A DNA stretch of 64,000 nt from an uncultured Desulfobacterales bacterium (GTDB lineage: Bacteria; Desulfobacterota; DSM-4660; Desulfatiglandales; JALVZP01), in NCBI GenBank assembly GCA_964513995.1, contig CAZEOQ010000003.1, forward strand, positions 20,009 through 84,008, in the 5' to 3' direction. The number at the start of each line of letters is the position of its first letter. Position 1 is the stretch's first letter. Below are positions 15,020 through 59,634 of the stretch, piece by piece. The position numbers and the translations under genes are program-made. Below the pieces are notes generated by a model. That model had not been told where the DNA came from and made no database searches. It worked only from the letters and a program-made list of their open reading frames with translations.

Positions 15020-15373
15020 ATGCGAAAAGTTGGTGATCTTGTTCTTATCTATTATATGGGAAAGCCTTCTGTTTATGCAAGAATAGAATCCATAGAACCT
15101 GATGTAAAAGAAGGATGGTATCAAGTAAAACTTTTGCTTTTAAGTATCCCAGCACAAATAGTTACCTGGATACTGAGAGAAGAATACATTGATGGAAGTA
15201 TATTCACTATGGGTGGAGTTCCTATGAGACTTGGAGATGTTGAAATAGGACCTCCTGCAAAGCTTTTGGGAGAGATGAATCAGAAAAAAGAAGAGGATAA
15301 AAAGGAAGAAAAAGAGTCAAAGAAGAAAAAGGCAAAGGTTATAGAACTAAAACTTCCTGAAAGAAAAAGATAA
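15020..15373 (+). CDS. hypothetical protein (117 aa) with K/E-rich C-terminal tail
   Basis: GGGAGGG SD and a good promoter upstream. No recognisable family. Confidence 0.5.
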   Translation: MRKVGDLVLIYYMGKPSVYARIESIEPDVKEGWYQVKLLLLSIPAQIVTWILREEYIDGSIFTMGGVPMRLGDVEIGPPAKLLGEMNQKKEEDKKEEKESKKKKAKVIELKLPERKR

Positions 15374-17934: not shown

Positions 17935-19131
17935 ATGGCTGAAAAGGCATTAGAAGGAATAAAAGTCCTTGATCTTGCAAGAAATATTGCAGGATCATAT
18001 TGTGGAAAGCTTTTTGCAGACTTTGGTGCAGAGGTAATTAAGGTTGAGCCTCCTGAAGGAAATCCTTTAAGAAAGATGTGTCCTTTTAAGGGTGATGAAA
18101 AGGATCCTGAAAAAAGTGGAACATTCTTTTATCTGAATACAAATAAGAAGAGCATTACACTTGATATTACAAAAAAAGAAGGCGCTGATGTTCTTAAAAA
18201 ACTTGTAGAAAAAGCAGATGTCATTATAGAGGACTTTGAGCCTGGAAAGATGAAGGAGTTTGGGCTTTCGTATGAGGAACTGAAAAATGTAAATCCAAAA
18301 ATAATCATGACTTCTATAACCTGGTTTGGACAAGATGGACCATACAGGGACTATAAAGCAAATAACTTTGTCGCATATGGTCTTGGTGGTGCAATGTATG
18401 TCATGAGACCAACAAAGTGGCCAGACATAAGACCTGCCGTTCTTGGAGGATATCAGGCAGAATATACAGCAGGTCTTATTGCATACATAGCTACACTAAG
18501 TGCCATCATAAGTCCAAAAGTAGAAGGGACATGGATTGATCTTTCTGTTATGGAATCAGTAACGAGCACACTTACAGGAATTATGGCAGACTATTCATAT
18601 CTTGGACTTAGCAGAAGGACACTTCCTTGGGCAATACATGGATTTCCAACACAGGAAAACTATCCTTGCAAAGACGGTTATGTAAATCTTACACCAGGAA
18701 TTGGTGGAACACAGGTCATTGCTGATCTTATAGAAAAGCCAGAAGAAAGAGAAAATCCACTCCTTGTAAAAGCTGGAGCAAGGGTAAAAGAGCCAGAAAA
18801 GTTTGAACAGCTGATCCTTCCATGGCTAAAAGAGCATAAAAAATGGGAAATTACAGAAAAAGCACAAAAACTCAAGCTCGCATTTGCACCAATACTTAGT
18901 CCTGGAGAACTTCTTGAAGATCCACAGCTTAAAGAAAGGAAGTTCTTTGCAAAGGTAGATCATCCAAAGATGGGAGAGGTAACATATCCTGGAGCACCTG
19001 CAAAGCTCAGTGAAAGTCCATGGAAGGAAGGAAGGGCTCCTCTTCTTGGAGAACATACAAAGGAGGTCCTTTCTGAAGCAGGATATTCTGAGGATCAGAT
19101 AAATGATCTCAAAGAAAAAGGCATAATATAA
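17935..19131 (+). CDS. family III (CaiB/BaiF-type) CoA-transferase, subunit/paralogue A
   Basis: N-terminal family motif LEGIKVLDL...GKLFADFGAEVIKVEPP. By manual alignment, the position of the family nucleophile Asp carries Glu (GGYQAEYTAGL). Confidence 0.85.
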   Translation: MAEKALEGIKVLDLARNIAGSYCGKLFADFGAEVIKVEPPEGNPLRKMCPFKGDEKDPEKSGTFFYLNTNKKSITLDITKKEGADVLKKLVEKADVIIEDFEPGKMKEFGLSYEELKNVNPKIIMTSITWFGQDGPYRDYKANNFVAYGLGGAMYVMRPTKWPDIRPAVLGGYQAEYTAGLIAYIATLSAIISPKVEGTWIDLSVMESVTSTLTGIMADYSYLGLSRRTLPWAIHGFPTQENYPCKDGYVNLTPGIGGTQVIADLIEKPEERENPLLVKAGARVKEPEKFEQLILPWLKEHKKWEITEKAQKLKLAFAPILSPGELLEDPQLKERKFFAKVDHPKMGEVTYPGAPAKLSESPWKEGRAPLLGEHTKEVLSEAGYSEDQINDLKEKGII

Positions 19132-19144
19132 AGGAGGGAAAAAG

Positions 19145-20515
19145 ATGGCATATAAGCTTCTTGAAGGAATAAGAATACTTGATCTTACGACAGTATATGC
19201 AGGTCCTATGGGAACAAGAATACTTGCAGATCTTGGTGCAGAAGTAATAAAGATAGAGTCTCCATCAAGACCAGATCTTTTTACACGAATGACAGCATAT
19301 CCTGATAATGAACCACCTGAAAAGGAAAACTGGAATGCAGGAGGATACTTTCATCTCCTTAATGCAGGGAAAAAGGGGATAAGTCTTGATATATCAAAGG
19401 ATAAAGGAAAGGAGATATTCAAGAGACTTGTAAAGATAAGTGATATTGTAATGGAGAACTTTTCTCCAAGAGTTATGGATAATCTTGGTCTTGGATATCA
19501 GGAGCTCAGGAAAGTTAAGCCTGACATAATAATGGTATCAATGAGTGGACTTGGACATTATGGACCACTCAGAGACTACTACATGTATATGACAGGAATG
19601 GAAGGGATGTCCGGTCTTACATACATAACAGGACATCCTGACAAACCTCCACTTCTTTCAAACTATGCATATGGTGACTGGATGTTAGGAGTAACAGGTG
19701 CAGCTGCAGCTCTTACTGCACTCTATTACAGAAAAAAGACAGGAAAAGGACAGTATGTGGATGTTGCAGGAAGAGAAGCGATAATAATTCACATTGGTGA
19801 TGTGATAATGGACTATACACTTAATGGAAGAGTAAGGGAAAGGGCTGGAAACTTCCATCCAGAAATGGCACCACATGAATGTTATAGATGCAAGGGAGAA
19901 GACTCATGGATAAATATTGCAGTAGAAAATGATGAACAGTGGAAGGCACTTTGCAAGCTTATGGGAAAAGAAGAACTTAAAGATGATCCGAGATTTGCAA
20001 AAGCAGAAGACAGGGTAAAGAACAGAGAGGAGCTGAACAAAATTATAGAAGAGTGGACAAAGAATTATGATAACATAGAACTTATGGAAATGCTTCAGAA
20101 AGAAGGAATTCCTGCAGGTGCAGTCCTTTCCATGAAGCAGGTTCATCTGAATCCTCATCTAATCCAGAGAGGATACTTTGAGGTCATTGATCATGGAAAG
20201 GCTGTTGGAAAAAGACCAGTAGGAAAACAGATGCCAGCAAAGTTTTTGGGTGTAGAAAGCTTTGTTCCAAAAAGGGCTCCTCTTTTTGCTCAAGACAATG
20301 AATATGTATTTTGTGAGCTTCTTGGAATGAGCAAGGATGAGCTCAAGAAACTTGAAGAAGAAAAAGTCATAGGGACTGTTCCAAGATTTCCACCTCCTCG
20401 TCCAACAAGACTTGATCTTATAGAAAAACAGGTAGGAAAAGGTGCAGGTTATGTTGATCCAAATTATCTTGAAGAGCTGAGAAAGGTATTTGGAGAAGAC
20501 ATAGGAAAGAAATAA
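19145..20515 (+). CDS. family III (CaiB/BaiF-type) CoA-transferase, subunit/paralogue B
   Basis: LEGIRILDLTTVYAGPMGTRILADLGAEVIKIESP. The nucleophile Asp context YAYGDWMLGVTGAAAALTAL aligns with CaiB YTADYFSGLTATTAALAAL. Confidence 0.85.
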   Translation: MAYKLLEGIRILDLTTVYAGPMGTRILADLGAEVIKIESPSRPDLFTRMTAYPDNEPPEKENWNAGGYFHLLNAGKKGISLDISKDKGKEIFKRLVKISDIVMENFSPRVMDNLGLGYQELRKVKPDIIMVSMSGLGHYGPLRDYYMYMTGMEGMSGLTYITGHPDKPPLLSNYAYGDWMLGVTGAAAALTALYYRKKTGKGQYVDVAGREAIIIHIGDVIMDYTLNGRVRERAGNFHPEMAPHECYRCKGEDSWINIAVENDEQWKALCKLMGKEELKDDPRFAKAEDRVKNREELNKIIEEWTKNYDNIELMEMLQKEGIPAGAVLSMKQVHLNPHLIQRGYFEVIDHGKAVGKRPVGKQMPAKFLGVESFVPKRAPLFAQDNEYVFCELLGMSKDELKKLEEEKVIGTVPRFPPPRPTRLDLIEKQVGKGAGYVDPNYLEELRKVFGEDIGKK

Positions 20516-20531
20516 AAAGGAGGGAATCAGT

Positions 20532-21749
20532 ATGGAAGAGAAAATAGAAAAGGTAGAAAAGGGAAAGCTTGTTGAAGGTCGTCTTACTCCAGAGCTTATA
20601 AAGGAGATGGAAGGAAAGAAAGGACTTATGCTAAGAGTTGATGACTATATAAATAATGTTGATGTTACGAAAAGGGCAATAAGAAGTTTCTGTGATGGTG
20701 TAGGAGACTGGAATCCACTTTACAGAGATGAGGAATATGCAAAAAAGAGTCCATATAAAGGACTTGTAGCTCCACCATTTTTTGTATATTCCATCCTTCC
20801 TGCTGCACCACAGTTTGGATTTAGAGGACTTGGTGGATTCAATGCAAGGAATGAACTTCATTTTTATAAGCCTATCCGTCCAGGAATGCACATAGAGCCT
20901 ACATCACAGTTCAAGGACTTTGAGATAAAGGAAGGGAAAAGAGGAAAGATGGTATTTGAGTATTTTGAGCAAAGGTATGTAGATGAAAAAGGTGAGCTTG
21001 TATGTCTTTATAATCAGATGAATATAAGGGTTGAAAGAGCTGCAATGAGAAAGAGCAAGGAGGAAGAAGCAAAGAAAGAGAAAAAAGGTCCTCAGCTTCC
21101 ACATCCATGGACAGATGAAGAACTTGAACAGATAGAAAAAGAGATCCTTTCAGAAGAGATAAGAGGAGCAGAACCAAGATTCTGGGAAGATGTTCAGGTT
21201 GGAGAAGAGCTAAAGCCAGTAATAAAAGGACCAATTGGTCTTTCTGACATGATTGCATTCTTCCTTGGTGGTGCAACTCCTGTAAGACCATTTGGTCATG
21301 AGCTTGCATACAGACATAAACAAAGGCATCCTGCATGGTATTTCAGAGATCCTGAAACATATGCCTTGGAGCCAGTCTATGCTGTTCACTACAATAAATA
21401 TGCAGCACAATCACAGACAGGTATTGCATGGCCATATGATGTCGGAATACAGAGACACTGCTGGCAGGGACATCTTCTTACAAACTGGATGAGTGATCAC
21501 GGATGGCTGAAGATGGCAAGGGCAGAATACCGTGGTTTTGTATATCTTTCTGATGTGATAAGGGTTGGAGGAAAGGTCGTAAAGAAGTATATAGATGATG
21601 AAGGAGAGCCTGTTGTTGAGATAGAGACATATGCAATAAATCAGAGAGGAGAAAATGTAATGCCAGGACTTGCAATAGTTGCACTTCCGTCAAGAGAAAG
21701 GAACTACTGGCCAGTAGAAGAAAGAGTAAAAAAGGAAGGAATAAAATAA
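20532..21749 (+). CDS. double hotdog-fold (MaoC-N + MaoC-like) acyl-CoA dehydratase/hydratase family protein
   Basis: The N-terminal half carries FCDGVGDWNPLYRDEEYAKKSPYKGLVAPPFF, which is MaoC_dehydrat_N-like. The C-terminal half is a second hotdog domain. It is a paralogue of 26691-27881. Confidence 0.75.
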   Translation: MEEKIEKVEKGKLVEGRLTPELIKEMEGKKGLMLRVDDYINNVDVTKRAIRSFCDGVGDWNPLYRDEEYAKKSPYKGLVAPPFFVYSILPAAPQFGFRGLGGFNARNELHFYKPIRPGMHIEPTSQFKDFEIKEGKRGKMVFEYFEQRYVDEKGELVCLYNQMNIRVERAAMRKSKEEEAKKEKKGPQLPHPWTDEELEQIEKEILSEEIRGAEPRFWEDVQVGEELKPVIKGPIGLSDMIAFFLGGATPVRPFGHELAYRHKQRHPAWYFRDPETYALEPVYAVHYNKYAAQSQTGIAWPYDVGIQRHCWQGHLLTNWMSDHGWLKMARAEYRGFVYLSDVIRVGGKVVKKYIDDEGEPVVEIETYAINQRGENVMPGLAIVALPSRERNYWPVEERVKKEGIK

Positions 21750-21761
21750 AGGAGGAGGAAG

Positions 21762-23345
21762 ATGCCACTCAAAACCTTCTTGGATGAATTTAAGAGCTAC
21801 GAAGAAGCAAGAGAAAAGTTCAAGTGGTCTGACAGATGGAAGGTATTTGATGGGACAAAAGAAAACTTTAACATTGCACATGAATGTGTTGACAGACATC
21901 CAAAAGAGGATGTTGCTTTGAGGATAAAGTATGAGGACGGAAGGGAAGAGGTTTATAAGTTTAAGGAATTTTCAGAAGCAACATCACAGTTTGCAAACTT
22001 CCTTGCTGGAAGAGGAATAGAAAAAGGAGACAGAGTTGCACTCCTTCTTCATCCATGCTTTGAGTTTTATGTGGGAATGTTTGGGACATTTAAGAGAGGT
22101 GCTATCGTAATCCCATGTTCTCCACTTTTTGGACCAGAAGCAGTTGGATATCGTCTTGAAAAAGGTGGTGCAAAGGCAATACTTACAACAAAGGACAGGA
22201 CAAATCTTATTCCTGATGATGTAAGAAAGAAGCTGAATCTTCAGATAATATATGCAGACGATCTTCTTGATCAGATAAGCAAGGAATCAACAGAATTTAC
22301 TCCTAATACCAGTGCAAATGATCTTGCAATGTATCAGTTCTCAAGTGGGACAACAGGTGCACCAAAGATAGTAAATTACAGACATGGTGCAATTACTGTT
22401 GCAGCACCATTTGTAAGGTTTGCCGTAGGAATTACAGCTGATGACAACTACTTCTGTCCATCATCTCCTGCATGGGGACATGGAATCTGGTATGGAACAA
22501 TAGCACCACTTATATTTGGAGTTGCTGTTGGTGCATATTCAGGAAGGTTTAATCCTGATGTATGTCTTGAAGCACTTCAGAACTTTGAAATAACAAACAT
22601 CTCTGCAATTGCATCACACTACAGACTTATGGTCACATCTCCAAATGTTGATAAATACAAGCTTAAGCTAAGGAAGCTTACGTATACTGGTGAGGCTATG
22701 CCAAAGGACATAATAGAGCTTATACAGAAAAAATGGGGAATTACACCTTATGTCCTTTACGGAACAACAGAGGTAGGTCCTCTTACATGTGATTTTGCAG
22801 GATTTGAAACCTGGAAGCCAAAGCCAGGAAGTCTTGGAAAGCCAGCAATAGGAGCAGAAGTAGAAGTCCTTGATGAAGAAGGAAACATATGTCCTCCAGG
22901 AAAAGTAGGACAGATGGCAATAAAAAGAGGTGATAAATGGATAAAGGTAGGAGATCTTGTGTATAAGGATGAAGATGGATTCTTCTGGTATGTTGGAAGA
23001 GCAGATGATGTCATTATATCTGCAGGATATACAATAGGACCAATAGAGATTGAAGAAGCTCTTAAGAAACATCCAGCAGTGGAAGAGTGTGCAGTTGTTG
23101 GAAGTCCTGATAAAGAAAGAGGAAACATTGTAAAGGCATTTATTAAAGTAAGGGAAGGATACAGTCCTACTCCACAGCTTGCAGAAGAGATAAAGGAGTT
23201 TGTAAAGGATAAGCTCAGCAAGCATGAATATCCAAGAGAAGTTGAATTTATTGACGAGATTCCAAAGACACCTGATGGAAAGATAAGAAGGAAGGTGCTT
23301 AGGGAAAGAGAGATAGAGAGAAAGAAGAAGATGGGAGTGATATAG
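21762..23345 (+). CDS. AMP-forming acyl-CoA synthetase/ligase
   Basis: Adenylate-forming motifs YQFSSGTTGAPK, YGTTE, GDLVYKDEDGFFWYVGRADD and PKTPDGKIRR. Confidence 0.85.
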   Translation: MPLKTFLDEFKSYEEAREKFKWSDRWKVFDGTKENFNIAHECVDRHPKEDVALRIKYEDGREEVYKFKEFSEATSQFANFLAGRGIEKGDRVALLLHPCFEFYVGMFGTFKRGAIVIPCSPLFGPEAVGYRLEKGGAKAILTTKDRTNLIPDDVRKKLNLQIIYADDLLDQISKESTEFTPNTSANDLAMYQFSSGTTGAPKIVNYRHGAITVAAPFVRFAVGITADDNYFCPSSPAWGHGIWYGTIAPLIFGVAVGAYSGRFNPDVCLEALQNFEITNISAIASHYRLMVTSPNVDKYKLKLRKLTYTGEAMPKDIIELIQKKWGITPYVLYGTTEVGPLTCDFAGFETWKPKPGSLGKPAIGAEVEVLDEEGNICPPGKVGQMAIKRGDKWIKVGDLVYKDEDGFFWYVGRADDVIISAGYTIGPIEIEEALKKHPAVEECAVVGSPDKERGNIVKAFIKVREGYSPTPQLAEEIKEFVKDKLSKHEYPREVEFIDEIPKTPDGKIRRKVLREREIERKKKMGVI

Positions 23346-23352
23346 AAGAGGG

Positions 23353-24342
23353 ATGAAAAAAGGAAGACAAAAGGGCGGATTATTCCGCCCTTTTGTTTTA
23401 ATTATTTTTTCTGTCCTTCTTATTGCCCCTTCTTTCTGCAAAGCAGAAAAAGAATTTCTTCTTCCAGGAAAGCTTTATCCTTCCTTATGTATCTGTTTTC
23501 CAAACAATAAGGAAGGATGGATAGCAGGGCATTTTGGAATGATCTGGCATACAGATGATGGTGGAAAAAGCTGGAAGATTCAGGAAAGTGGAACGAGGAA
23601 AAATATAGTGGACATGTATTTTGTTGACACGAAGAATGGATGGGCGGTAGGATATGGAGGACTTATCCTTCATACATCTGATGGAAAAAGATGGGAAAAA
23701 CAGAAAAGTCCTTTGCCTTATTTCTGGAAGTCTGTCTTCTTTAAAGACAAGCTTCATGGATGGATTGTTGGAGAGATGGGAACAGTCCTTTATACAGAAG
23801 ATGGTGGAAAGAACTGGAAGGTCCTTATTACTGGAGACGACCTTGTATTCCATTCAATTGCCTTTTCTCCTGAAGGATATGGATGGGCAGCAGGTGAATT
23901 TGGTGTCATATATGCATATGATCTGAAGAAGTGGTATCTTGAAGACAATGGAATAGCTGCAGAAGAAAACACCATATGGTCAATAGCATGTATTGGAAAA
24001 GAAAGGATCGTTGCATCAGGAATAGCCTCACTCCTTCTTATAAAGGAAGGTTATACTGGAAGATGGAAGAGGATAAGAGTTCTTGAGAAATATCATGGAC
24101 AGAATAGCCTTTTCAGGATACTCAAATTCAAGGATAAGATAATCACATTTGGTATGAAGTCTATCTATTATAGCAAAGACCCTTATGGACCATGGAAAAA
24201 AGCTCGTCTTCCTTTAAAGCTTCCATATGGTGAATGGCTTTATGATTGCTGGAATAATGGGAAAAGGGTTTGGATCCTTGGAATAAAAGGAACAATCCTT
24301 TACAGTGATGATGGTGTGGTATGGAAGACCATAGGGGAATAA
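23353..24342 (+). CDS. secreted Ycf48/BNR-repeat-like beta-propeller protein
   Basis: Signal-peptide-like N-terminus and repeated Asp-box motifs TDDGGKSWK, TSDGKRWEK, TEDGGKNWK and SDDGVVWK. Confidence 0.75.
   Translation: MKKGRQKGGLFRPFVLIIFSVLLIAPSFCKAEKEFLLPGKLYPSLCICFPNNKEGWIAGHFGMIWHTDDGGKSWKIQESGTRKNIVDMYFVDTKNGWAVGYGGLILHTSDGKRWEKQKSPLPYFWKSVFFKDKLHGWIVGEMGTVLYTEDGGKNWKVLITGDDLVFHSIAFSPEGYGWAAGEFGVIYAYDLKKWYLEDNGIAAEENTIWSIACIGKERIVASGIASLLLIKEGYTGRWKRIRVLEKYHGQNSLFRILKFKDKIITFGMKSIYYSKDPYGPWKKARLPLKLPYGEWLYDCWNNGKRVWILGIKGTILYSDDGVVWKTIGE
23367..23410 (+). terminator. intrinsic-terminator-like hairpin inside the 5' coding region of the Ycf48-like gene
   Basis: 13-bp perfect stem ACAAAAGGGCGGA (23367-23379) / TCCGCCCTTTTGT (23384-23396) with a 4-nt loop, followed by TTTTAATTATTTTTT. 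Confidence 0.55.
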
Positions 24343-26687
24343 CAGGATTTATAGCAGAATATGCCTTCAGATTCAGAATTCCACTTCTCATCCTCACATT
24401 CCTTATCACAGTATATATGGGAATTGGTCTTAGAAGACTTCAGACAAAAGCAAGACTTGAGGACATGCTTCCAGAAAGTCATCCTTATATAAAACTTCAC
24501 AAAAAATATCAGGCAATATTTGGTGGAGCAAATACAGTCCTTTGTGAACTTAAGGTAAAAGAAGGAGACATATTTAATCCAAAATTCTTAAAGATACTCA
24601 AAGAAGTAACATACAAATTTCGCTATTATGACGATGTATATCCTCTTCTCGTAGATTCTATTACTCTTCAGAAGGCAAAATACATAAGTGTAAGAGGAAG
24701 GGGTGAGGTATACATTGGATCACTTGTATGGCCAAGAATTCCAAAGAAAAAGGAAGAGCTTGAAGAACTTAAAGAACATACACTTGGAAGTCCTCTTTAT
24801 AGAGGTGTCCTTGTTTCAGCTGATGGAAAGGCTGCTCTTATTGTTGCTCAATTTAAGCCAACAATTGATTATAAGAAGCTTTACAGATTTGTCCAAGACT
24901 TAAGAGAAAAGTATAATAACGAATATACGAGCATACACCTCATAGGAAGACCAATACTTCTTGCCACAATATATGGTCACTGGAACAGGATATTCTTTAT
25001 ATTTGCAATAACATTTGCAATCATAGGAATCCTTCTTTTCCTTTTTTTAAGGTGTCTTATAGGACTTATTGTCCCGATTGCTGTTGCATTTTTAAGCAGC
25101 ATCTGGGGGATTGGTCTTTGTGGATACCTGAAACTCAACTTTGATCCACTTATGATCGTCCTTCCATTCCTTGTTTCTGTAAGATGCATAAGCAGTGCTG
25201 TTCAGAAATGTGAAAGATATGTGGAAGAGGAGCTAAGGACAAGGAGAAAGGATATTGCTGCAAAGAATACTATAAGGAGTATGCTTCCTCCATGTCTTGG
25301 AGCAGTCCTTACAGATGGAGCAGGATTTGCTGCTATGATCCTTTCAGACATCCCTTTTTTAAAAAACATAAGCATCATACTTACACTCTGGATACTGAAT
25401 CTGATATTTTTGAGTGGGATAATGGCACCAATATTTTCATATTATCTTCCTGCACCAAGTTCTTATAAGAGCAGATTCTTCAGACCTTCAAAAGAAGATA
25501 TCTGGGCAAGATTTAACACAAAGATTGCAAGATTTTCCATAACACCTTTTGGAAAAAAGATTGTTATAGGCTTTGTCTTTACAGTTGCCTTTTTCTTTGG
25601 AATCTTTGCAGCAAGGATACCAATTGGAGAAATAGCTCCTGGGACAAGTGTTCTTAAGCCTGATTCTGTATATAATAGGGATTTTCAGGAAATAACACTC
25701 AGGTTTGACAAGATTGGTCCTGATACACTAATTCTATTTTTTGAAGGAAGGCCAGGGGCAGTAGAAGATCCAAGATTCCTTCACTACATAGAAGCATTTG
25801 AGTATTATATGAAGGAAAGGATGCCTGATATATGTGGAGGATGGAAGTCTCTTACGACAATCATAAGAAGACTTAACTGTATGTTTCATGAAGGAGATCC
25901 ATCATGGTTTCTTATCCCTGATAAGAAAAAGGCAACAGAGGATCTGATCCTTTTATATAGACAAAAGCAGCCACCTGGTGGATTTGACTGTTTTGCTGAC
26001 AGGCTTTTTAGATTTGGAAACACAGTCCTTTTTTTCAAGGATCATACTGAAAAGACAATAAAAAGAATCATGAAACACATGAAAGAGTTCTTTGAAAGAT
26101 ATCCACCAAAAATAGAAGGACTTGGAGAATTTAAACCAGCAGGAGGAGTAATAGGAGTTCATGCAGCAATAAATGAGACGATTGAAAAAGAGCATCTTCG
26201 CATAGACTCTACTGTCCTTTCAGCAATATTCCTTATATGTGCTCTTACATTCAGATCACTTCTTATTGCAAGCTTCCTTATAACTCCTCTTATTGTTGCA
26301 AACATCGTAGGATTTGGACTTATGAGCCTTCTTGGTCTTAGTCTTACGATAGAAACGATTCCTATTGCTGCTGTTGGTGTTGGAATTGGAGTAGACTTTA
26401 GCATTTATCTTTATAGCAGATACAAGGAGGAGTATGCAATAAGGACAGATATGGAAAGGAATCTTATTGAAGGTGCAAAGTCTGTAGGAAAAGCAATCCT
26501 TTTTATTGCACTTGTCATGATCATTCCTCTTTCTGTCTGGGGATTTCTTGCAGAGATAAGATTTCAGGCACAGATGGGAATGTTCTATTCACTTATCTTC
26601 TTTATAAATCTTATATTCTCTCTTACATTTCAGCCAGCAGTTGTTTCTCTTTTTGGAAAAAGGGTTGAGAAATCTCTTAAGAGGTAA
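24321..26687 (+). CDS. RND-superfamily transporter, MMPL/HpnN-like (COG1033-type)
   Basis: 788 aa with two multi-TM bundles separated by large soluble loops. The N-terminus is typical of predicted RND exporters. It overlaps the Ycf48-like gene by 22 nt. Confidence 0.8.
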   Translation: MEDHRGITGFIAEYAFRFRIPLLILTFLITVYMGIGLRRLQTKARLEDMLPESHPYIKLHKKYQAIFGGANTVLCELKVKEGDIFNPKFLKILKEVTYKFRYYDDVYPLLVDSITLQKAKYISVRGRGEVYIGSLVWPRIPKKKEELEELKEHTLGSPLYRGVLVSADGKAALIVAQFKPTIDYKKLYRFVQDLREKYNNEYTSIHLIGRPILLATIYGHWNRIFFIFAITFAIIGILLFLFLRCLIGLIVPIAVAFLSSIWGIGLCGYLKLNFDPLMIVLPFLVSVRCISSAVQKCERYVEEELRTRRKDIAAKNTIRSMLPPCLGAVLTDGAGFAAMILSDIPFLKNISIILTLWILNLIFLSGIMAPIFSYYLPAPSSYKSRFFRPSKEDIWARFNTKIARFSITPFGKKIVIGFVFTVAFFFGIFAARIPIGEIAPGTSVLKPDSVYNRDFQEITLRFDKIGPDTLILFFEGRPGAVEDPRFLHYIEAFEYYMKERMPDICGGWKSLTTIIRRLNCMFHEGDPSWFLIPDKKKATEDLILLYRQKQPPGGFDCFADRLFRFGNTVLFFKDHTEKTIKRIMKHMKEFFERYPPKIEGLGEFKPAGGVIGVHAAINETIEKEHLRIDSTVLSAIFLICALTFRSLLIASFLITPLIVANIVGFGLMSLLGLSLTIETIPIAAVGVGIGVDFSIYLYSRYKEEYAIRTDMERNLIEGAKSVGKAILFIALVMIIPLSVWGFLAEIRFQAQMGMFYSLIFFINLIFSLTFQPAVVSLFGKRVEKSLKR

Positions 26688-26690
26688 AGT

Positions 26691-27881
26691 ATGATAGAGT
26701 CAAAGGTAAAGATGGCAGAAGCAGAGATTACAGAAGAGCTTATAGAGGAGATGAAAAAAAGAAGAGGGAAGAAGCTTTATGTGGAAGATGTCCTTTTTCA
26801 CGACAGGGCAACAAAAAGGGCAATAGAAAGGTTTGCAGATGCAATAGGAGATCCTAATCCTCTCTGGAGAGACAGGGAATATGCAAGGAATACTATATAT
26901 GGAGACATAGTTGCACCACCTTCATGGATACTTTCTGTTCTTTCTGGTGTCCAGTTTGGATGGAAAGGTCTTGCAGGATTTCACATCTCAACTGAGATAA
27001 AGTTCTTTAGACCAATAATGCTTGATGATGTCCTGAGCTGTGAATCGGTATATGTAGGATTTGAAGGTCCAAAAAAGAGCAGATTTGCAGGAAAGGTTGT
27101 CATAGATACATTCAGAGAGAGGTATTTTAATCAGAAAGGAGAACTCATAGCAGTGTCTATAAGAAAGATCCTGAGAGCAGAAAGAAAAAGTGCAAGAGTT
27201 CGTTCTTATTATGAAGGAATAAAGCTTCCACATCCATGGAAAGAAGATGAGCTGAAGAAGATAGAAGAAGAGGTTATGAATGTGAAGATAAGGGGATCTG
27301 AGATAAGATACTGGGAAGATGTTAAAGTAGGAGAAGAGCTTCCAGATCTTGTAAAAGGACCAATTGGAATCATGGACATAATTTCTGCAATAAGTGTTGG
27401 ACTTGCTCCTGCAAGGATATGTGGTCAGGCTGTTGCACTTGAGGAATACAGAAAAAGACCTGCATGGGCATTCCGTGATCCAGAAACAGGTGCAATGGAA
27501 CCTCTTCTTGCGGTTCACTATAACAAAGAAGCAGCAAAGGCAATGGGTCTTCCATATCCATATGATCTTGGACCACAAAGACAGTGCTGGTATATACAGC
27601 ACATAACAAACTGGATGGGAGATGATGGATGGCTAAAAAGCTGCTCTGCAGAATACAGAAGGTTTGTATTTCTTTCTGATGTTATCCGTTTTAAAGGAAA
27701 AGTCACAAGGAAGTATGTGGATGAAGAAGGTGAGCCTGTTGTAGAGATAGAAACGAATACATATAATCAGAGAGGGGAAAATGTCCTTATTGGAAAAGCA
27801 ACAGTTGTCCTTCCATCAAAAAAGATGAATACACATCCAGTTAAAAAAAGACTTGGGAGGGAAGAAGATGGTAAGGGCTAA
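26691..27881 (+). CDS. double hotdog-fold (MaoC-N + MaoC-like) protein, paralogue 2
   Basis: FADAIGDPNPLWRDREYARNTIYGDIVAPPSW, plus long blocks identical to 20532-21749 (e.g. GEPVVEIET, LPHPW, RDPET). It starts 4 nt after the RND stop. Confidence 0.75.
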   Translation: MIESKVKMAEAEITEELIEEMKKRRGKKLYVEDVLFHDRATKRAIERFADAIGDPNPLWRDREYARNTIYGDIVAPPSWILSVLSGVQFGWKGLAGFHISTEIKFFRPIMLDDVLSCESVYVGFEGPKKSRFAGKVVIDTFRERYFNQKGELIAVSIRKILRAERKSARVRSYYEGIKLPHPWKEDELKKIEEEVMNVKIRGSEIRYWEDVKVGEELPDLVKGPIGIMDIISAISVGLAPARICGQAVALEEYRKRPAWAFRDPETGAMEPLLAVHYNKEAAKAMGLPYPYDLGPQRQCWYIQHITNWMGDDGWLKSCSAEYRRFVFLSDVIRFKGKVTRKYVDEEGEPVVEIETNTYNQRGENVLIGKATVVLPSKKMNTHPVKKRLGREEDGKG

Positions 27882-28209
27882 GCTATGGCTCAGATGTGCT
27901 GCTGTAGGAGATCCTGTAACTCCTGTTCTTGTAAGACCTGCTGTTTTGGGATGGGAAGGGAAGTTCAGGGACATATCACTTACCATAGAAAGACCTTTCA
28001 AGGCAGATGAGCTTTTGAGAAGGATGAAGGGATGGGTTACTGTGGATGTGGAAAAATTTATAGATATCGTAAAAAAATATGGATTTTTGAAACTACTTGA
28101 TGAAAGATATGTTGTAATAGAGACAGAGACTGAAGAAGAGTTTGAAAAGATGAAGAAAGAGCTTCAGAAAAATTTTGAAGATCAGTTTGATCTGGAGAGG
28201 ATGGTATGA
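27868..28209 (+). CDS. hypothetical protein (113 aa)
   Basis: ATG 27868 lies 6 nt after GGGAGGG (the ORF-track TTG is at 27853). It overlaps the upstream stop and makes an ATGA overlap with ugd. No recognised family. Confidence 0.5.
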   Translation: MVRAKLWLRCAAVGDPVTPVLVRPAVLGWEGKFRDISLTIERPFKADELLRRMKGWVTVDVEKFIDIVKKYGFLKLLDERYVVIETETEEEFEKMKKELQKNFEDQFDLERMV

Positions 28210-29584: not shown

Positions 29585-31282
29585 ATGGAAGAAAAGGTAA
29601 TTCAGTTTAAAAGAGAAGGGCAGACTGTTGCTGAAAGAAGAAGGGAGCTTTTTTTAGAAAGACTGTTCAGTCTTCCTCCAGAAAAAGCACTTGACCTTAT
29701 ACTTTCTCAGCAAAATGCAAAAGAGCTTGTTCAGAACCTTCCTTCAGTTGACCTTTACTGGATCATAAAAAAGATAGGAGAAGATGATTCTATTCCCATT
29801 CTTGAACTTGCTTCAGAAGAGCAATGGCAATACATACTTGATATAGAAGTATGGGTAAGGGACAGGATAAACATAAGGAAGGTATCTGAATGGCTCAGGA
29901 GATTTATGAAAGCAGATGCTGAAAGACTTGCAAGATGGCTTATAACTGAAGAAATGGAAATGTTTACTTACTATTATCTCTACAGGATGCTTGACATAAT
30001 AATTGCAACAGATGACAACATATACGACATTCCTGAAGACTACTTTACACTTGACGGAACATTTTATCTGAAGCTAAGAGATCCTGATCAGAGAGATCTT
30101 ATTGAGACAATCCTAAAGCTTATAGCAAGTGAAAGCTTCCTAAGGTATCAAGCACTTCTTATGACATCAAGAGCAATTCTTCCTGCATCAACAGAGGAAG
30201 AGCTATATAGGCTTAGAAGTGTAAGGATTGCAGAATATGGTTTCCTTCCATTTGAAGAAGCAGTTGGAATATATGCCCCACTTGATCCAGAGGATCTTGT
30301 ATTAGAAAAGAAGGACAGAAGAAAGGAGATAGTTTATGTTGATGATGAGGTAAAGGACATAATCCCATCTTTTCCAATGTATAGTCTTCAGCCTGTAGGC
30401 ATATTTCAGCTTGCCTTAAGGAACATTAAAGACAATGTCCTTCTTGACAGAATAAAGCTTGAATTTGCTGGTCTTTGCAATCAACTTCTTTCTGCTGACG
30501 GACTTTCTATTGGAGGATATGAGGATCTTATAAAAGTCTGTAAAAAAGCAGCAGGTTATCTGAACATAGGTTTTGAAAAGGTATGTGGTAATGATGTAAA
30601 TATGGCTATAGAGCTTATAAAGAAGAATTCACTTCATTCTATATTCAGAGTAGGATTTGGTATTGCACTTAGGCTGAGATGGGAAGTAGAAAGATGGATA
30701 AAAGAAAGCTGGTTTAGGAGTCAGGAGATAGACTTCAGTTTCTGGGGATCAGACGGAGAAATCCTTATAGGTCTTCTTAACAAAAAACCTCTTTATTATG
30801 TAGGAATAGAAGATGGAGAAGAATACAGACCTTTCCAGAGCCTGAAGGAAATAGAGGAATGCAGAAGTATCTTTTATAAGATAAAAGTCCTTGACAGGCT
30901 TTTTTCTGATCTTACATCGTTCTATCCAATTGAAAAAGGTCTTCTTAAAGATCCTACCATAACTTATGTCCCTTTTCTTTTCACATTCTGGGCAAGAAAG
31001 ATATTGGAACTTGATCCTGGATTTTTACCAATAGATATGGATCAGGTAAGAAGGTTCTTTGAAAAACTCAGAGAAAAAGAAAGCCAACCTCCATATAGGA
31101 TGGAAGGATTTAGGGAAAGATTTATAGAAGATATAAGCTGTTACTTTTCAGGAGAAAAAGAGGAAAAAAGGATTCTAAGGGATATACTTTCTTCTCTGTG
31201 GGATGAATTTAGAGAAGAATATGAAAATGTAGCTATAAAGGACTTAGATGAAAGATATATCAGGTTCATCCTTATCAGATAA
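29585..31282 (+). CDS. hypothetical protein (565 aa), helical-repeat N-terminus
   Basis: Long ORF starting 2 nt after the ugd stop. The N-terminal region is loosely MgtE-N-like helical. No catalytic motif recognised. Confidence 0.55.
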   Translation: MEEKVIQFKREGQTVAERRRELFLERLFSLPPEKALDLILSQQNAKELVQNLPSVDLYWIIKKIGEDDSIPILELASEEQWQYILDIEVWVRDRINIRKVSEWLRRFMKADAERLARWLITEEMEMFTYYYLYRMLDIIIATDDNIYDIPEDYFTLDGTFYLKLRDPDQRDLIETILKLIASESFLRYQALLMTSRAILPASTEEELYRLRSVRIAEYGFLPFEEAVGIYAPLDPEDLVLEKKDRRKEIVYVDDEVKDIIPSFPMYSLQPVGIFQLALRNIKDNVLLDRIKLEFAGLCNQLLSADGLSIGGYEDLIKVCKKAAGYLNIGFEKVCGNDVNMAIELIKKNSLHSIFRVGFGIALRLRWEVERWIKESWFRSQEIDFSFWGSDGEILIGLLNKKPLYYVGIEDGEEYRPFQSLKEIEECRSIFYKIKVLDRLFSDLTSFYPIEKGLLKDPTITYVPFLFTFWARKILELDPGFLPIDMDQVRRFFEKLREKESQPPYRMEGFRERFIEDISCYFSGEKEEKRILRDILSSLWDEFREEYENVAIKDLDERYIRFILIR

Positions 31283-32354: not shown

Positions 32355-34998
32355 AGAAGAAGCAGAAGAAAGGTATAAGGTCTTAAAAAAGATTGCAGGA
32401 GAAAGTATAGATAAAGAAAAGCTGAAAAAGATTATTTTATTGAGTGATTTTGTTTTTAATACAATCCTGAATTATCCTTCTAGTCTGGAAGTTATAGATG
32501 AGAAGATAAAAAAAAGGTTTGGAAAAGAGGATTACATAAGGAGGATAGGGGATTGTATAGAAGAGGAGATAGGTGAATTTAAAAAAAGGCTGAGAAGACA
32601 GAGAAATAAAGAGCTTTTAAGGATTGCATGGAAGGACATCGTGGAAGGATGTGATGTATTTGAGGTGATGAAAGAGCTTTCAGCATTTGCAGATGCCTGT
32701 ATTCTAAGGACTATGGAATATACCTATAGGATGTATTCACACAGATTTGGTTCTCCTGCAGAAAAAGCTCAGACTTTAACGGTTATTGCTTTGGGAAAAT
32801 TGGGAGGAGAAGAACTCAATTTTTCATCTGACATTGACATTATGTTTGCCTATCCTGAAGAAGGAGTAACATATAGCAAAATTACAAACAGTGAATTTTT
32901 TTCATATATGGCTCAATCAATTATCAACATATTAAGTGAACATACAGAAGATGGATTTGTCTTTAGAGTAGATACGAGACTCAGACCATTTGGAGAAAGT
33001 GGTCCAATAGTTATGAACTTTGATGAAATGGAAGATTATTACTATACATATGGAAGAGAATGGGAAAGATATGCACTTATAAAAGCAAGGGTTATAGGAG
33101 GGAATGAGGAGATTATACACAGGATCAGGAAATTTGTTTACAGGAAGTATCTTGATTATGGAGTATTTGAGGCATTAAGAGAGATGAAGGAGAAGATAGA
33201 ATCAGAAACAAAGGATATGAGTATAGATGAGGATATAAAACTTGGGCCTGGAGGAATAAGGGAGATAGAATTTTTTGTTCAAGTCTTTCAGTTGCTTAGA
33301 GGAGGAATAGATCCTGAACTTCAAACACCAAGTCTGCTGAAGGCTATTTCTGTTCTTGGAGAAAAGGGATATCTTGACAAAAAGATCTGTTCTGGATTGA
33401 TCTCTGCATATAGATTTTTCAGAAGACTTGAAAACAGGATTCAGCAATATAAGGATCTACAGACACACAGGCTTCCAAAAGAAAGGAAAGAAAGGATAAA
33501 ATTAGCTTTTTCAATGGGATTTGAAGACTGGGATAGCTTTTTTAAAACTCTGCTTTATTGGTCCTCTTTTGTAAGAAAAAACTTTTCTCAGCTTTTAGGA
33601 AAAAAAGAAAAGACAGAAGACATCTTTGTGTCAATATGGAATACAGATGAAAGAGAAAAGAGAAAAAGGCTTCTTTCTTCTATTGGAGCATCAAAAAAAG
33701 TTGAGACAATAATTGATGAACTGAAACAGACAAGATACCTTGGACAGAATGCAAAAAGGATCCTTGATAAGCTTATGCCAGTCGTCTTAAAAAAGATCTT
33801 TAAAGAAGAGGAAAATGTATCTCTGGCAATATCCAGGATTATAAAAAGCATACAGACAAGGACAAATTATCTTTCTCTTCTTCTTGAAAATCCATCTGTT
33901 ATTGATCATCTTATAAGACTTGCAAAAGAAAGCTCATGGATAATCTCATTTGTCTCAAAAAATCCTGCACTCTTAGATGAACTTATAGATCCAAGGACAC
34001 TTTATAATCCACCAAGAAGAGAAGAGCTGAAAAGGGACATAAATAACAGGCTGAAGATGATTTCTGATTTAGAGGATCAAATAATACAGCTATGTCTTTT
34101 CAGACAGACAAACACACTTAGAGTTGCTGCAGCAGACATAGAAGGCGCTATTTCTACAGTTGAGGTAAGCAGTCTCCTTACGCATATAGCAGAAGTTGTC
34201 TTGGAAAAGGCTTTGGAGATTTCTATGAATAAATTTGGAAAAAAAGATGGATTTTGTATTATAGGATATGGTAAGCTTGGAGGAAGGGAACTCGGTTATA
34301 ACTCTGATCTTGACATAGTATTTATCCATACAGAAGATCCATCCTCTTATATAAAAGTCTCACAACACATCCTCAAGCTTCTTACGACATATACAGTCAT
34401 GGGAAAGGTATATGAAATAGACACAAGACTAAGACCAGATGGAAGTTCAGGAGTCCTTTCAGTAAACATCTCTTCATTTGAAAAGTATCAGTTAGAAAGG
34501 GCATGGACATGGGAACATCAAGCACTCCTTAGAGCAAGGGGGATATGTGGGGACAAGAAGGTCATGAAGGCATTTGAGGATATAAGATATAAGGTGCTTT
34601 CAAAGAAAAGAGAAAAAGGGAAGCTTTTTGAAGAAGTATGGGACATGAAAGAAAGGATAAGAAAAAATCTGTTAAAACCAGTAAAAGGTCTTTTTCACAT
34701 AAAGTATGAAAGAGGTGGAATCATAGACATTGAATTCCTAATCCAGTATCTTGTTCTTCTTAATGCACATCTTTTTCCTGAGATCCTGAAAAGGAGATCT
34801 CACATTCATTTCATAGAAGAGCTTGTAAGGGTATCTGTTATGGATAAGGAAGATGGAATCTTTCTGAAGAATGCTTATATTGAGCTGAGGTCTATGCTAA
34901 ACAGGCTCTCACTTCAGGAAAAGCCATTTAGAGTTGAAAGAGAAAGGGTTTGTGAGATAGCTGAAAAGGTGGAAAGGCTATGGGAAAAATATTCCTGA
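32335..34998 (+). CDS. glnE: glutamine synthetase adenylyltransferase/adenylyl-removing enzyme
   Basis: Two nucleotidyltransferase modules: GKLGGEELNFSSDIDIMF and GKLGGRELGYNSDLDIVF. Confidence 0.85.
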   Translation: MLPRELKEEAEERYKVLKKIAGESIDKEKLKKIILLSDFVFNTILNYPSSLEVIDEKIKKRFGKEDYIRRIGDCIEEEIGEFKKRLRRQRNKELLRIAWKDIVEGCDVFEVMKELSAFADACILRTMEYTYRMYSHRFGSPAEKAQTLTVIALGKLGGEELNFSSDIDIMFAYPEEGVTYSKITNSEFFSYMAQSIINILSEHTEDGFVFRVDTRLRPFGESGPIVMNFDEMEDYYYTYGREWERYALIKARVIGGNEEIIHRIRKFVYRKYLDYGVFEALREMKEKIESETKDMSIDEDIKLGPGGIREIEFFVQVFQLLRGGIDPELQTPSLLKAISVLGEKGYLDKKICSGLISAYRFFRRLENRIQQYKDLQTHRLPKERKERIKLAFSMGFEDWDSFFKTLLYWSSFVRKNFSQLLGKKEKTEDIFVSIWNTDEREKRKRLLSSIGASKKVETIIDELKQTRYLGQNAKRILDKLMPVVLKKIFKEEENVSLAISRIIKSIQTRTNYLSLLLENPSVIDHLIRLAKESSWIISFVSKNPALLDELIDPRTLYNPPRREELKRDINNRLKMISDLEDQIIQLCLFRQTNTLRVAAADIEGAISTVEVSSLLTHIAEVVLEKALEISMNKFGKKDGFCIIGYGKLGGRELGYNSDLDIVFIHTEDPSSYIKVSQHILKLLTTYTVMGKVYEIDTRLRPDGSSGVLSVNISSFEKYQLERAWTWEHQALLRARGICGDKKVMKAFEDIRYKVLSKKREKGKLFEEVWDMKERIRKNLLKPVKGLFHIKYERGGIIDIEFLIQYLVLLNAHLFPEILKRRSHIHFIEELVRVSVMDKEDGIFLKNAYIELRSMLNRLSLQEKPFRVERERVCEIAEKVERLWEKYS

Positions 34999-58762: not shown

Positions 58763-59634
58763 TATATTACCTTATTCAGTGGATATTCTATTATGTCCTG
58801 TGCTCCTGCTTTTATAAGCTTTGGAATAAGATCTCTTACTACCTGTGAATTTACAACTGCTTCTACTGAAAGCCAATCAGAATTATAAAGACTTGCTACA
58901 GTTGGTGCCTTCATACTTGGAAGAATCTTTATGACCTCATCAAGTCTTTCCTTTGGAACATTCATCTTAAGCCCTACCATACTTTCTGCTCTAAGAGCAC
59001 CTTTTAGAAGAAGTGCAATCTGCTCAATTTTACTTCTTTTCCAAGGATCCTTGTATGCTTCTTTGTTTGCAATAAGCTGTGGATTTGTCTTCATAAACTC
59101 ATATATGATCTTAAGTCCATGTGCCTTTATTGTGCTTCCTGTTTCTGTCACTTCAACTATAGCGTCTACAAGACCTGCTGCAACCTTTGCTTCTGTTGCT
59201 CCCCAAGAAAATTCAACTTCTACATCAATCCCTTTCTGTTTAAAGAATCTTTTCGTAAATCTTACGAGTTCAGTTGCAATCTTTTTTCCTCTTAGATCTT
59301 CAAGACTTTTTATATCTGAATCTGCTCTTACTGCAAGGACCCATCTTGCAGGCTTGTTTGTCGTCTTTGAATATACAAGGTCCTCCACAACAATCACATC
59401 TGACTCATTTTCTTCTATCCAGTCCCTTCCAGTAATTCCTGCATCAAGTGTTCCATCTTCTACATACTTTGACATCTCTTGTGCTCTGCAGATTGTGCAT
59501 TCAATCTCTTCATCATTTATATCAGGAAAATAGCTCCTTTCATTTACTGTAATCTTCCATCCAGATTTTTCAAAAAGGTTTATTGTTGCATTTTGAAGAC
59601 TTCCTTTTGGAATCCCAAGCTTTAACTTCTTCAT
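58762..59634 (-). CDS. hisG: ATP phosphoribosyltransferase, long form
   Basis: 290 aa with the [11 protein letters not shown]-terminus, a catalytic core and a C-terminal regulatory domain. Confidence 0.9.

Follow-up and report, generated by a model that had tools for sequence, protein, structure and literature searches.

How benzene is attacked without oxygen is a decades-old question. Two 2026 studies, one of the benzene degrader 'Candidatus Anaerobenzenivorax' ORM2a (Toth et al., AEM 2026, PMC13101534) and one of the marine sulfate reducer BzS1 (Musat et al., Environ Microbiol 2026, PMC13416013), have both singled out an abundant GlcDEF-like flavoprotein together with CoA-handling genes. 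Both propose the flavoprotein as the benzene-activating enzyme, both call their pathways hypotheses, and neither could name the reaction or its product. Here we describe a four-gene set, CT1-CT2-HD1-LIG, found in a 64,000-nucleotide stretch of DNA from an uncultured Desulfobacterales bacterium (assembly GCA_964513995.1, contig CAZEOQ010000003.1, positions 20,009 to 84,008; hereafter the window). The set, which encodes two family-III CoA-transferases, a double-hotdog protein and an AMP-forming acyl-CoA synthetase, is a further instance of the kind of gene set described in these studies.

In ORM2a, the genes of the so-called 'Magic' cluster are numbered from an AMP-binding protein (#22) and a MaoC protein (#23, WAC08367.1), through the GlcDEF-like trio (#24-26) and two type-III CoA-transferases (#27 and #28), to a small hotdog pair made up of a hypothetical protein (#29) and a protein with a MaoC N-terminal domain (#30) (PMC13101534). 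The proteins of this cluster were detected in benzene-degrading cultures, and the cluster was reported to lie on a genomic island (PMC13101534). In BzS1, the genes of the abundant flavoprotein (BzS1_12970/80/90) occupy a locus of their own. BzS1_26180/190/200/210 encode a BbsE-like CoA-transferase of 44.1 kDa, a CaiB/BaiF-like CoA-transferase of 50.5 kDa, a protein with a dehydratase domain of 45.6 kDa and a CoA ligase of 58.8 kDa; each of the four proteins was found, and benzene gave higher levels than toluene (PMC13416013).

The four window genes correspond to the CoA genes of the 'Magic' cluster. Read in the orientation of the window, the ORM2a locus (L090/L091; related loci are cited by number throughout) runs BamQ, MaoC-N164, hyp150, CT399, CT453, FAD483, CCG438, FAD581, HD396, LIG523, and the four window proteins are 62-73% identical to their ORM2a counterparts, which occur in the same order (tblastn; Table 1). 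The 74%-identical match of HD1, P0004, stands for the 90%-identity cluster of which WAC08367.1 is a member, and in both loci the ligase gene is followed by a terminator-like hairpin. The sequence homology of the window module to the 'Magic' CoA genes is solid. A preliminary description of this region had seen no assignable substrate, a statement now outdated by a set that is syntenic with a benzene-associated cluster and points to aryl-substituted acids. We hold it to be slightly more probable than not that the four genes form a 'Magic'-type module for the CoA activation and hydration of an aryl-substituted short-chain acid, acting downstream of hydrocarbon activation and standing apart from the flavoprotein. 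Unlike the 'Magic' cluster, the window lacks BamQ, the GlcDEF-like FAD/Fe-S/FAD trio and #29/#30, and it carries a Ycf48-like gene paired with a gene of the resistance-nodulation-division (RND) superfamily, as well as a second full-length double-hotdog gene, HD2. Furthermore, the window module sits amid housekeeping genes, whereas the ORM2a cluster lies on a transposase-flanked island.

Table 1. Coordinates of the four-gene set and of the block that follows it in the window
Feature	Coordinates	Strand	Evidence
CT1, family-III CoA-transferase, non-canonical subunit, 398 aa	17935-19131	+	Pfam CoA_transf_3 E 9.8e-84; best PDB match 9fn0_A, 170 bits; 62% to ORM2a CT399
CT2, family-III CoA-transferase, predicted catalytic subunit, 456 aa	19145-20515	+	Pfam CoA_transf_3 E 1e-109; PDB 4ed9 215 bits, 9fn0_B 210; 69% to ORM2a CT453
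HD1, double-hotdog MaoC-superfamily protein, 405 aa	20532-21749	+	Pfam PF13452 (FAS1_DH_region) and PF01575 (MaoC_dehydratas); AlphaFold2 model; 73% to ORM2a HD396
LIG, AMP-forming acyl-CoA synthetase, medium-chain (MACS/ACSM) type, 527 aa	21762-23345	+	Pfam AMP-binding and AMP-binding_C; 69% to ORM2a AMP-binding protein
Intrinsic-terminator-like hairpin and T-run	23364-23399	+	16-pair stem, 7 GC pairs; after the LIG stop, within the first codons of the next open reading frame
Ycf48-like BNR beta-propeller protein, 329 aa, N-terminal signal-peptide-like segment	23353-24342	+	Pfam PSII_BNR E 2.6e-20
RND-superfamily transporter (MMPL / HAE3-like), 788 aa	24321-26687	+	Pfam MMPL; NCBIfam HAE3 TIGR00921 147, below its cut-off of 352
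HD2, second double-hotdog paralogue, 396 aa	26691-27881	+	Pfam PF13452 and PF01575; 48% identical to HD1
118-aa open reading frame, membership in block uncertain	27853-28209	+	No match in Pfam/NCBIfam scans

The coordinates, families, tight packing and strong Shine-Dalgarno sites reported in the preliminary description were all confirmed by the positions of the open reading frames (ORFs) and by Pfam. Every start in the four-gene set is preceded by the ribosome-binding site AAAGGAGG(G/A), and the gaps between CT1, CT2, HD1 and LIG are 13, 16 and 12 nt. Because of this packing and of the hairpin after LIG, CT1-CT2-HD1-LIG look like one transcription unit, though the co-directional block runs on downstream. 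A hairpin with another stem sequence lies at the same place after the ligase gene in L002, L004, L005, L006 and ORM2a (L090). In the window, the hairpin falls inside the first 16 codons of the Ycf48-like ORF (23353-23400), in the part coding for the signal peptide, and transcription of the transporter genes may be attenuated by it instead of being fully coupled.

The window set also resembles BzS1_26180-210, which likewise stands alone as four genes separate from those of the flavoprotein; the functions follow one another in the same order, and the masses are nearly identical (44.4, 51.6, 47.1 and 59.3 kDa predicted for CT1, CT2, HD1 and LIG). The masses do differ, so the window belongs to a different organism, and no protein in the clusters examined has an exact published BzS1 mass. 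According to both papers, a hydrothermal metagenome-assembled genome (MAG), AUK045 (GCA_021163815), encodes close flavoprotein homologues (PMC13101534, PMC13416013). Its locus L006 has CT-CT-HD-LIG-HD2 between Tol-Pal/peptidyl-prolyl isomerase (PPIase) genes and the gene of aspartyl-tRNA synthetase, and flavoprotein genes were not seen on the visible 21 kb. The identities of the L006 proteins to those of ORM2a are 72% (LIG), 72% (HD), 65% (CT) and 60% (CT), and we infer that these values reproduce the AUK045 column of Table 3 of Toth et al., with the row labels shifted by one. The CoA module is thus not linked to the flavoprotein in this marine and vent lineage, and at least one genome, AUK045, has both.

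With regard to HD1, the earlier assignment of a double hotdog held, with one correction: both Pfam matches are confined to residues 41-158, in the N-terminal half, and the call therefore cannot rest on Pfam alone. The AlphaFold2 model of HD1, made with 62 homologues, has two helix-in-sheet hotdog units (predicted local distance difference test 89.4, predicted template-modelling score 0.90). Foldseek comparison of this model with the PDB returned double-hotdog hydratases and dehydratases exclusively, with a probability of 1.0 and template-modelling scores of 0.5-0.75. The best structural neighbours, to which HD1 is only 10-13% identical, are MSMEG_6754 (4v12), Mch (4e3e), MeaC (8hgn), PaIch (8huc, 8khg) and Rv0216 (2bi0); further neighbours are the hydratase-2 of MFE-2 and the fungal fatty acid synthase dehydratase. 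A PDB sequence search with HD1 gave no meaningful match, and unlike the known double-hotdog structures (258-353 aa), HD1 is longer by about 50-140 residues. Across 62 aligned relatives, the N-terminal domain has a motif like that of hydratase-2, F-x-D-G-[IV]-G-D-x-N-P-L, in which Asp59 is invariant, and the C-terminal domain has an invariant E280-P...V-H286-Y-N segment and Asp303. The modelled fold supports the (de)hydration of an acyl thioester, by a chemistry that need not be that of a canonical (R)-hydratase. In a neighbour-joining tree, HD1 belongs to a monophyletic 'Magic-type' clade, in which the sequences of ORM2a, L087 and L089 make up the sister group of HD1 with its window-type relatives, and L088 is basal.

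HD2 forms a clade of its own, confined to window-type loci (L002, L004, L005, L006, L095 and L096). The small hotdog proteins of ORM2a are related to the same family: #30 (164 aa) aligns to the N-terminal hotdog with an hhalign probability of 96.9%, and #29 aligns weakly, and colinearly, to the C-terminal half. The idea that HD2 is a simple substitute for #29/#30 was toned down, as AUK045 has HD2 and is also reported to have homologues of #29/#30 (PMC13101534).

The two transferases had been called paralogues; they are not simple ones, and look like a pair of the BbsEF kind, with one Asp and one Glu subunit. Against the BbsEF structure 9fn0, CT1 scores 170 bits with chain A and 117 with chain B, and CT2 scores 210 bits with chain B and 106 with chain A. 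Where YfdW, SUGCT and 4ed9 have their catalytic Asp, CT1 and 9fn0_A have Glu, and CT2 and 9fn0_B have Asp, an assignment of subunits made from PDB alignments alone. The Glu (QAEY/F) is found in 19 of the 19 CT1 orthologues at 50% identity or more, and the Asp (YGDW) in every CT2 orthologue and in 58 of 59 CT2-like homologues. This pattern fits a heteromer with a single canonical catalytic subunit, CT2, as in BbsEF, in which the two proteins would form a complex. In distant pairs (L012, L046, L048, L054-L056, L063-L081 and others), the CT1-like partner has F, H, Y, G, A or S at the nucleophile position, and their sequences suggest that many 'paralogue pairs' of family III may be heteromers of a catalytic and a non-catalytic subunit. 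Moreover, L048, L049, L073 and L078, from Dehalococcoidia and Limnocylindrales MAGs, have two to four consecutive CT1-like/CT2-like pairs beside one or two genes of the HD family.

The resemblance to BbsEF, together with the presence of Mch, MeaC and PaIch among the nearest folds of HD1, recalls the characterised dicarboxylate pathways, those of mesaconate (Mct/Mch), itaconate (Ict/Ich), malate (SmtAB) and benzylsuccinate (BbsEF/BbsH), with the lyase encoded elsewhere. Distant sets also adjoin a CitE-like lyase: HD-CT-CT is kept, with HD identities of 34-37%, in Rhizobium, Agrobacterium, Bradyrhizobium and relatives (L054-L056, L069, L074, L075). In L054, the only annotated one, genes of a 289-aa unknown protein and a CitE/HpcH-like lyase come after this set, and those of a branched-chain-type ATP-binding cassette (ABC) importer and a 3-hydroxyisobutyrate-dehydrogenase-like protein come before it. 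These rhizobial sets look like an itaconate- or mesaconate-style dicarboxylate route. For the window, such an ordinary pathway is highly improbable, as NCBIfam scores largely refute it. CT1 and CT2 score 58 and 86 against a cut-off of 725 for Mct (TIGR04253), 182 and 233 against 700 for succinyl-CoA:mesaconate transferase (NF041294), 196 and 241 against 750 for the succinate-glutarate transferase, 110 and 126 against 413 for CaiB, and 230 and 251 against 442 or 224 and 247 against 504 for the formyl-CoA transferase (Frc/YfdW) models. Membership in the Frc, CaiB, SucGlut, Mct, succinyl-CoA:mesaconate, YfdE and HadAB families was ruled out, as all NCBIfam scores lie far under the cut-offs. Nor did any of the proteins reach the cut-off of an SmtAB-like family. 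HD1 reached no curated NCBIfam model and gave no match to the Mch and Ich models, and BbsH, the hydratase of the Bbs pathway, is a crotonase and not a hotdog protein. Given the low family scores and the low identity of HD1 to Mch, MeaC and PaIch, the proteins fall inside no characterised clade, Mct/Mch and Ict/Ich included, and the outcome that the preliminary description had given as refuting its reading did not occur. The window also has no lyase, no BbsG-type dehydrogenase and no BbsAB-type thiolase.

LIG has its best PDB matches in 9g79, 5u2a, MacS (3etc), the 4-hydroxybutyrate-CoA ligase 8biq and ACSM2A, with benzoate- and phenylacetate-type ligases further away than the medium- and short-chain enzymes. 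The medium-chain acyl-CoA synthetases (MacS, ACSM2A, 8biq, MbcS) are thus its closest matches, yet LIG misses the curated cut-offs by about half (370 against 729 for PRK04319, 354 against 850 for MbcS); for the CaiC model it scores 169 against 651. In its LYGTTE motif, LIG has Gly where acetyl-CoA synthetases have a gating Trp that limits the pocket to acetate, which is no more than a lead. The ORM2a orthologue was placed in a separate subfamily (PMC13101534).

The mining of orthologous neighbourhoods, as proposed in the preliminary description, found the CT-CT-HD-LIG order on more than 15 independent contigs, far above chance. Loci of the window type, in the order CT1-CT2-HD1-LIG-BNR-RND-HD2, comprise the window, L002/L003, L004, L005 and L095; L092-L094 have the same order as far as their short contigs reach, and L006 and L096 are without the BNR-RND pair. 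The window layout is common to at least 10 hydrothermal-vent contigs. Conversely, the module is linked to the flavoprotein in ORM2a (L090/L091), L087, L088 and L089. L087 reads MMPL, FAD, CCG, FAD, MaoC-N, hyp, CT, CT, HD, LIG, MBL, HGD-D twice and BcrAD twice; L088 reads CT, CT, HD, FAD, CCG, FAD, MaoC, MaoC; and in L089, 3HCDH and enoyl-CoA hydratase (ECH) genes are inserted before LIG, with a FAD_binding_4 gene at the end. The genes downstream in L087 (1-18469; GCA_054029575.1, contig JBPNTN010000112.1), a metallo-beta-lactamase-fold gene (MBL), two HGD-D and two BcrAD_BadFG genes, include HGD-D and BcrAD_BadFG members that could encode an enzyme like class-I benzoyl-CoA reductase or like 2-hydroxyacyl-CoA dehydratase.

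The usual partners of such enzymes had been found missing, which holds for the window, where no acyl-CoA dehydrogenase, crotonase, lyase or thiolase gene is found in the 64 kb, and does not hold for its closest relative. In the 91%-identical relative, genes of a 581-aa multi-Fe-S membrane protein and a 284-aa CCG protein stand before the module (L002 1414-7253, L003 306-2902), and further upstream in L002 there are an acyl-CoA dehydrogenase, a 355-aa unknown protein and a crotonase. The Fe-S/CCG oxidoreductase was searched for across the window and not found; this DsrMK/HdrD-like electron outlet of the relative is absent from it. A catabolic context for the module is indicated by these upstream genes of the relative (acyl-CoA dehydrogenase, ECH and DsrMK-like oxidoreductase), by the BcrBC/BcrAD-like genes downstream in L087 and by the 3HCDH and ECH genes inside the L089 cluster.

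Within this context, LIG would use ATP to convert a medium-sized acid, most likely one of C3-C5 with an aryl substituent, into the first thioester. The CT1/CT2 heteromer could then move CoA without ATP from a donor thioester, succinyl-CoA or the product of the pathway itself, to the free acid, with CT2 bringing the Asp nucleophile and CT1 acting as its Glu-variant partner. HD1, probably with HD2, would add or remove water at the 2,3-bond of an enoyl- or 3-hydroxyacyl-CoA, a step that might feed a beta-oxidation-like route to benzoyl-CoA, and the Ycf48-like/RND pair may handle a hydrophobic compound at the cell envelope.

Several observations weigh against this reading. No member of the module has been biochemically characterised. 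Homologues of #24-26 are absent from the 64-kb window (tblastn, E<=1e-3) and were not found in the window-type loci L002-L006 and L092-L096; the small hotdog proteins #29/#30 have no tblastn match in the window, and aromatic-pathway genes are absent from all 64 kb of it. With neither a flavoprotein homologue nor an aromatic-pathway gene, the window itself does not show that its organism uses benzene. The His that is canonical in hydratase-2 is absent from 62 of 62 aligned HD relatives, where the position is taken by W (45), F (9) or Y (8), so that ordinary (R)-hydratase chemistry is not guaranteed for HD1. The likeness to BzS1 is one of gene order and masses, and the BzS1 ligase was very abundant in all conditions listed (PMC13416013), which could mean that the ligase has a more general role. 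Furthermore, looser homologues of HD, CT and LIG, at 45-63%, are common in other contexts, including aerobes such as Paracoccus.

An alternative that we regard as possible, if distinctly short of probable, is a module of general use for a different carboxylic acid, either hydrophobic or of medium chain length (for example phenylpropanoid-like, alicyclic or branched), and unrelated to benzene in this organism; organisms that degrade benzene would merely have recruited it beside the flavoprotein. On this view, the acid or its precursor would be the cargo of the RND/Ycf48 pair. It would account for a module without a nearby flavoprotein in the window and at least 10 related contigs, for the abundance of the BzS1 ligase in all conditions, for a BzS1 flavoprotein nearly as abundant with toluene as with benzene (PMC13416013), and for the occurrence of the wider HD, CT and LIG families by beta-oxidation genes, glycyl radical enzymes, mutases and tripartite ATP-independent periplasmic (TRAP) or ABC uptake systems. 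However, the HD1 clade is small and discrete: the HD1 search gave more than 1000 relatives, of which only six 90% clusters reach 65% or more (91, 82, 78, 74, 73 and 65%), and the rest are at 58% or less. Every cultured or enriched carrier known is a benzene degrader (ORM2a/b, BzS1 by architecture, and Pelotomaculum BPL according to PMC13101534), and AUK045, with its window-type locus, also encodes the flavoprotein.

These wider families were surveyed through HD. Relatives at 35-58% occur widely across Desulfobacterota, Dehalococcoidia, Acidobacteriota, Actinomycetota and Proteobacteria. Their neighbours are family-III transferase genes in 48 of about 85 loci, mostly as CT1-like/CT2-like pairs, and an ACSM-like ligase in 29 of about 85; next in frequency come crotonases, short-chain dehydrogenases/reductases, acyl-CoA dehydrogenases and thiolases. 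The contexts include beta-oxidation operons (Paracoccus), CitE-like lyase sets (rhizobia), mutase/HGD-D sets and loci of a glycyl radical enzyme of about 830 aa. As the hotdog protein and the transferase pair occur together in so many contexts, they make up an old, reusable catabolic unit, and the window carries the sub-clade of it that is met in benzene degraders.

In three of these loci, L001 (471-17381), L010 (939-16058) and L085 (1-15716), distant HD genes and transferase pairs stand beside the glycyl radical enzyme of about 830 aa and its activase. Nearby are genes of a protein like dihydrodipicolinate synthase (DHDPS; not in L085), of DUF6282 and UGSC proteins (not in L010), and of an aldehyde:ferredoxin oxidoreductase or a Mo-hydroxylase. 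This looks like a glycyl-radical pathway that uses the same CoA trio; glycyl radical enzyme, DHDPS-like, aldehyde:ferredoxin oxidoreductase and UGSC genes were searched for in the window, and none was found. In Paracoccus denitrificans DSM 413 (L013, 1546-13718), a 50%-identical HD homologue occurs with an AMP-ligase and an IclR regulator, and divergent genes encode an aldehyde dehydrogenase, a family-III transferase, a thiolase, a FadB-like enzyme and a long acyl-CoA dehydrogenase. This strain offers a cultured aerobe for the genetic study of the HD family.

The logic by which the ligase primes a thioester, the transferase recycles CoA and the hotdog protein (de)hydrates, put forward in the preliminary description, is reasonable and was independently proposed by Musat et al. 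for the BzS1 cluster (PMC13416013). In its Fld/Cai form, suggested there for BzS1_26180-210, the hotdog protein would dehydrate 2-hydroxy-3-phenylpropanoyl-CoA to cinnamoyl-CoA and the transferase would return CoA from product to substrate; the labelled 3-phenylpropanoate detected in BzS1 cultures agrees with this cycle, as does the match of ligase, family-III transferase and 'dehydratase' (PMC13416013). We nevertheless consider it improbable for the window, where the CaiB and CaiC model scores lie far under the cut-offs and no HGD-D or BcrAD Pfam family is found among the annotated genes. Alpha-elimination from a 2-hydroxyacyl-CoA requires a radical [4Fe-4S] dehydratase of the HgdAB/FldBC type and an ATP-dependent activator. 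As hotdog proteins, HD1 and HD2 have no cofactor, which makes this reaction chemically unlikely for them.

The block does not end with LIG at 23345, where the preliminary description stopped: the Ycf48-like, MMPL/RND and second double-hotdog genes follow and are conserved with the set. The four downstream genes are on the same strand as LIG, overlap or lie at most 7 nt apart, and have weaker ribosome-binding sites than the four-gene set. This Ycf48/RND/HD2 extension is absent from the text and tables of PMC13101534 and PMC13416013 (gene-map figures apart). In L002-L005 and L092-L095, too, LIG is followed by the Ycf48-like gene (50-71% identity), and the RND protein is 69-79% identical in L002-L005, L092 and L095. 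The 118-aa ORF and the next gene, of UDP-glucose dehydrogenase, are kept together in L004 and L095 only.

The same family pair of Ycf48-like and MMPL/RND proteins is found in the highly expressed 'Nanopod' cluster of ORM2a, which comprises DUF1329, a YCF48-related protein and MMPL (PMC13101534). RND homologues at 62% (L121) and 45% (L122) lie in complete DUF1302-DUF1329-Ycf48-like-MMPL sets, and the ORM2a Nanopod MMPL was not recovered among the RND search matches or their clusters. L121 comes from the same Joint Genome Institute sample as L086, a contig whose 'Magic'-type CT, HD and LIG are 66-74% identical to the proteins of the window and of ORM2a, and on which flavoprotein genes are not visible. 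Unlike these sets, the window is without DUF1302 and DUF1329: neither is present among its annotated ORFs, and its four unannotated ORFs of at least 110 aa (15020-15373, scanned without a match, and 59631-60017, 61242-62159 and 62063-62740, unscanned) are too short for proteins of about 520 aa. In L087, an MMPL gene lies directly upstream of the flavoprotein-linked cluster, so the transporter link to the module recurs.

The transporter also bears on a further alternative, a cluster for the building or export of lipids, in which an MmpL-like exporter would join HadAB-like dehydratases, a FadD-like ligase and the neighbouring PlsB. PlsB is indeed the divergent upstream neighbour, and there are weak matches to the HadA/HadB and MmpL3/HpnN models. 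This interpretation is scarcely credible, as the hotdog proteins reach only 25-30 bits against NCBIfam cut-offs of 180-350 for HadA/HadB, CoA-transferases play no part in lipid synthesis based on acyl carrier protein, and benzene cultures strongly express the orthologues, which are catabolic proteins (PMC13101534, PMC13416013). The reading of lipid synthesis from the PlsB neighbour was rejected because the adjacency is not conserved: the upstream genes are those of acyl-CoA dehydrogenase and ECH in L002 and of Tol-Pal and PPIase in L006.

The remainder of the 64-kb window is of a housekeeping nature, with PabABC, PlsB, CstA, Hsp20, UDP-glucose dehydrogenase, DUF6178, DprA, GlnE, GroEL, MurA/MurC, HisG and several ABC systems. 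The G+C content is 39-40% in the cluster (18000-28000, with 37% in one 2-kb bin) and 33-36% in the housekeeping flanks. Among the proteins without known function are a 565-aa DUF6178 protein (Pfam E 6.5e-150), encoded between UDP-glucose dehydrogenase and DprA (29585-31282), and two adjoining DUF3857 paralogues after GlnE (34980-38614), the first of which also has a transglutaminase-like domain.

In the vent Desulfobacterales, the CoA genes form what looks like an independent, tightly conserved transcription unit unlinked to the flavoprotein, and this separation suggests that the module can be studied alone. The acids and CoA esters accepted by the ligase, the transferase heteromer and the hotdog enzymes would, working backwards, constrain the product of the activating enzyme. 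A bolder proposal, which we advance tentatively, is that the module, together with HD2, acts downstream as the obligate partner of the anaerobic benzene-activating flavoenzyme, converting the first benzene-derived acid into a CoA ester open to beta-oxidation. As the enzymes of the module are soluble, free of redox cofactors and easily expressed, their substrate specificity would then reveal the first benzene adduct, and vent Desulfobacterales with the module and the Ycf48-like/RND pair would be marked as degraders of benzene or another unsubstituted arene. Should the module turn out to be unrelated to benzene, its use as a metagenomic marker of anaerobic benzene degraders would call for caution.

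Among characterised systems, the module follows the logic of Cai (CaiB/CaiC/CaiD) and Fld (FldA/FldL/FldBC): priming by a ligase, recycling of CoA by a family-III transferase, and (de)hydration of the thioester. Unlike these systems, the window encodes neither a crotonase, the type to which CaiD belongs, nor a radical Fe-S dehydratase like FldBC. With regard to the Bbs pathway, the module differs in that its partner hydratase is a hotdog protein and the Bbs dehydrogenase and thiolase are not nearby, and the similarity of CT1 and CT2 to BbsEF is only about 170-210 bits. What it shares with BbsEF, the succinyl-CoA:(R)-benzylsuccinate CoA-transferase, is the composition of the transferase from two different CoA_transf_3 subunits, one with Asp and one with Glu.

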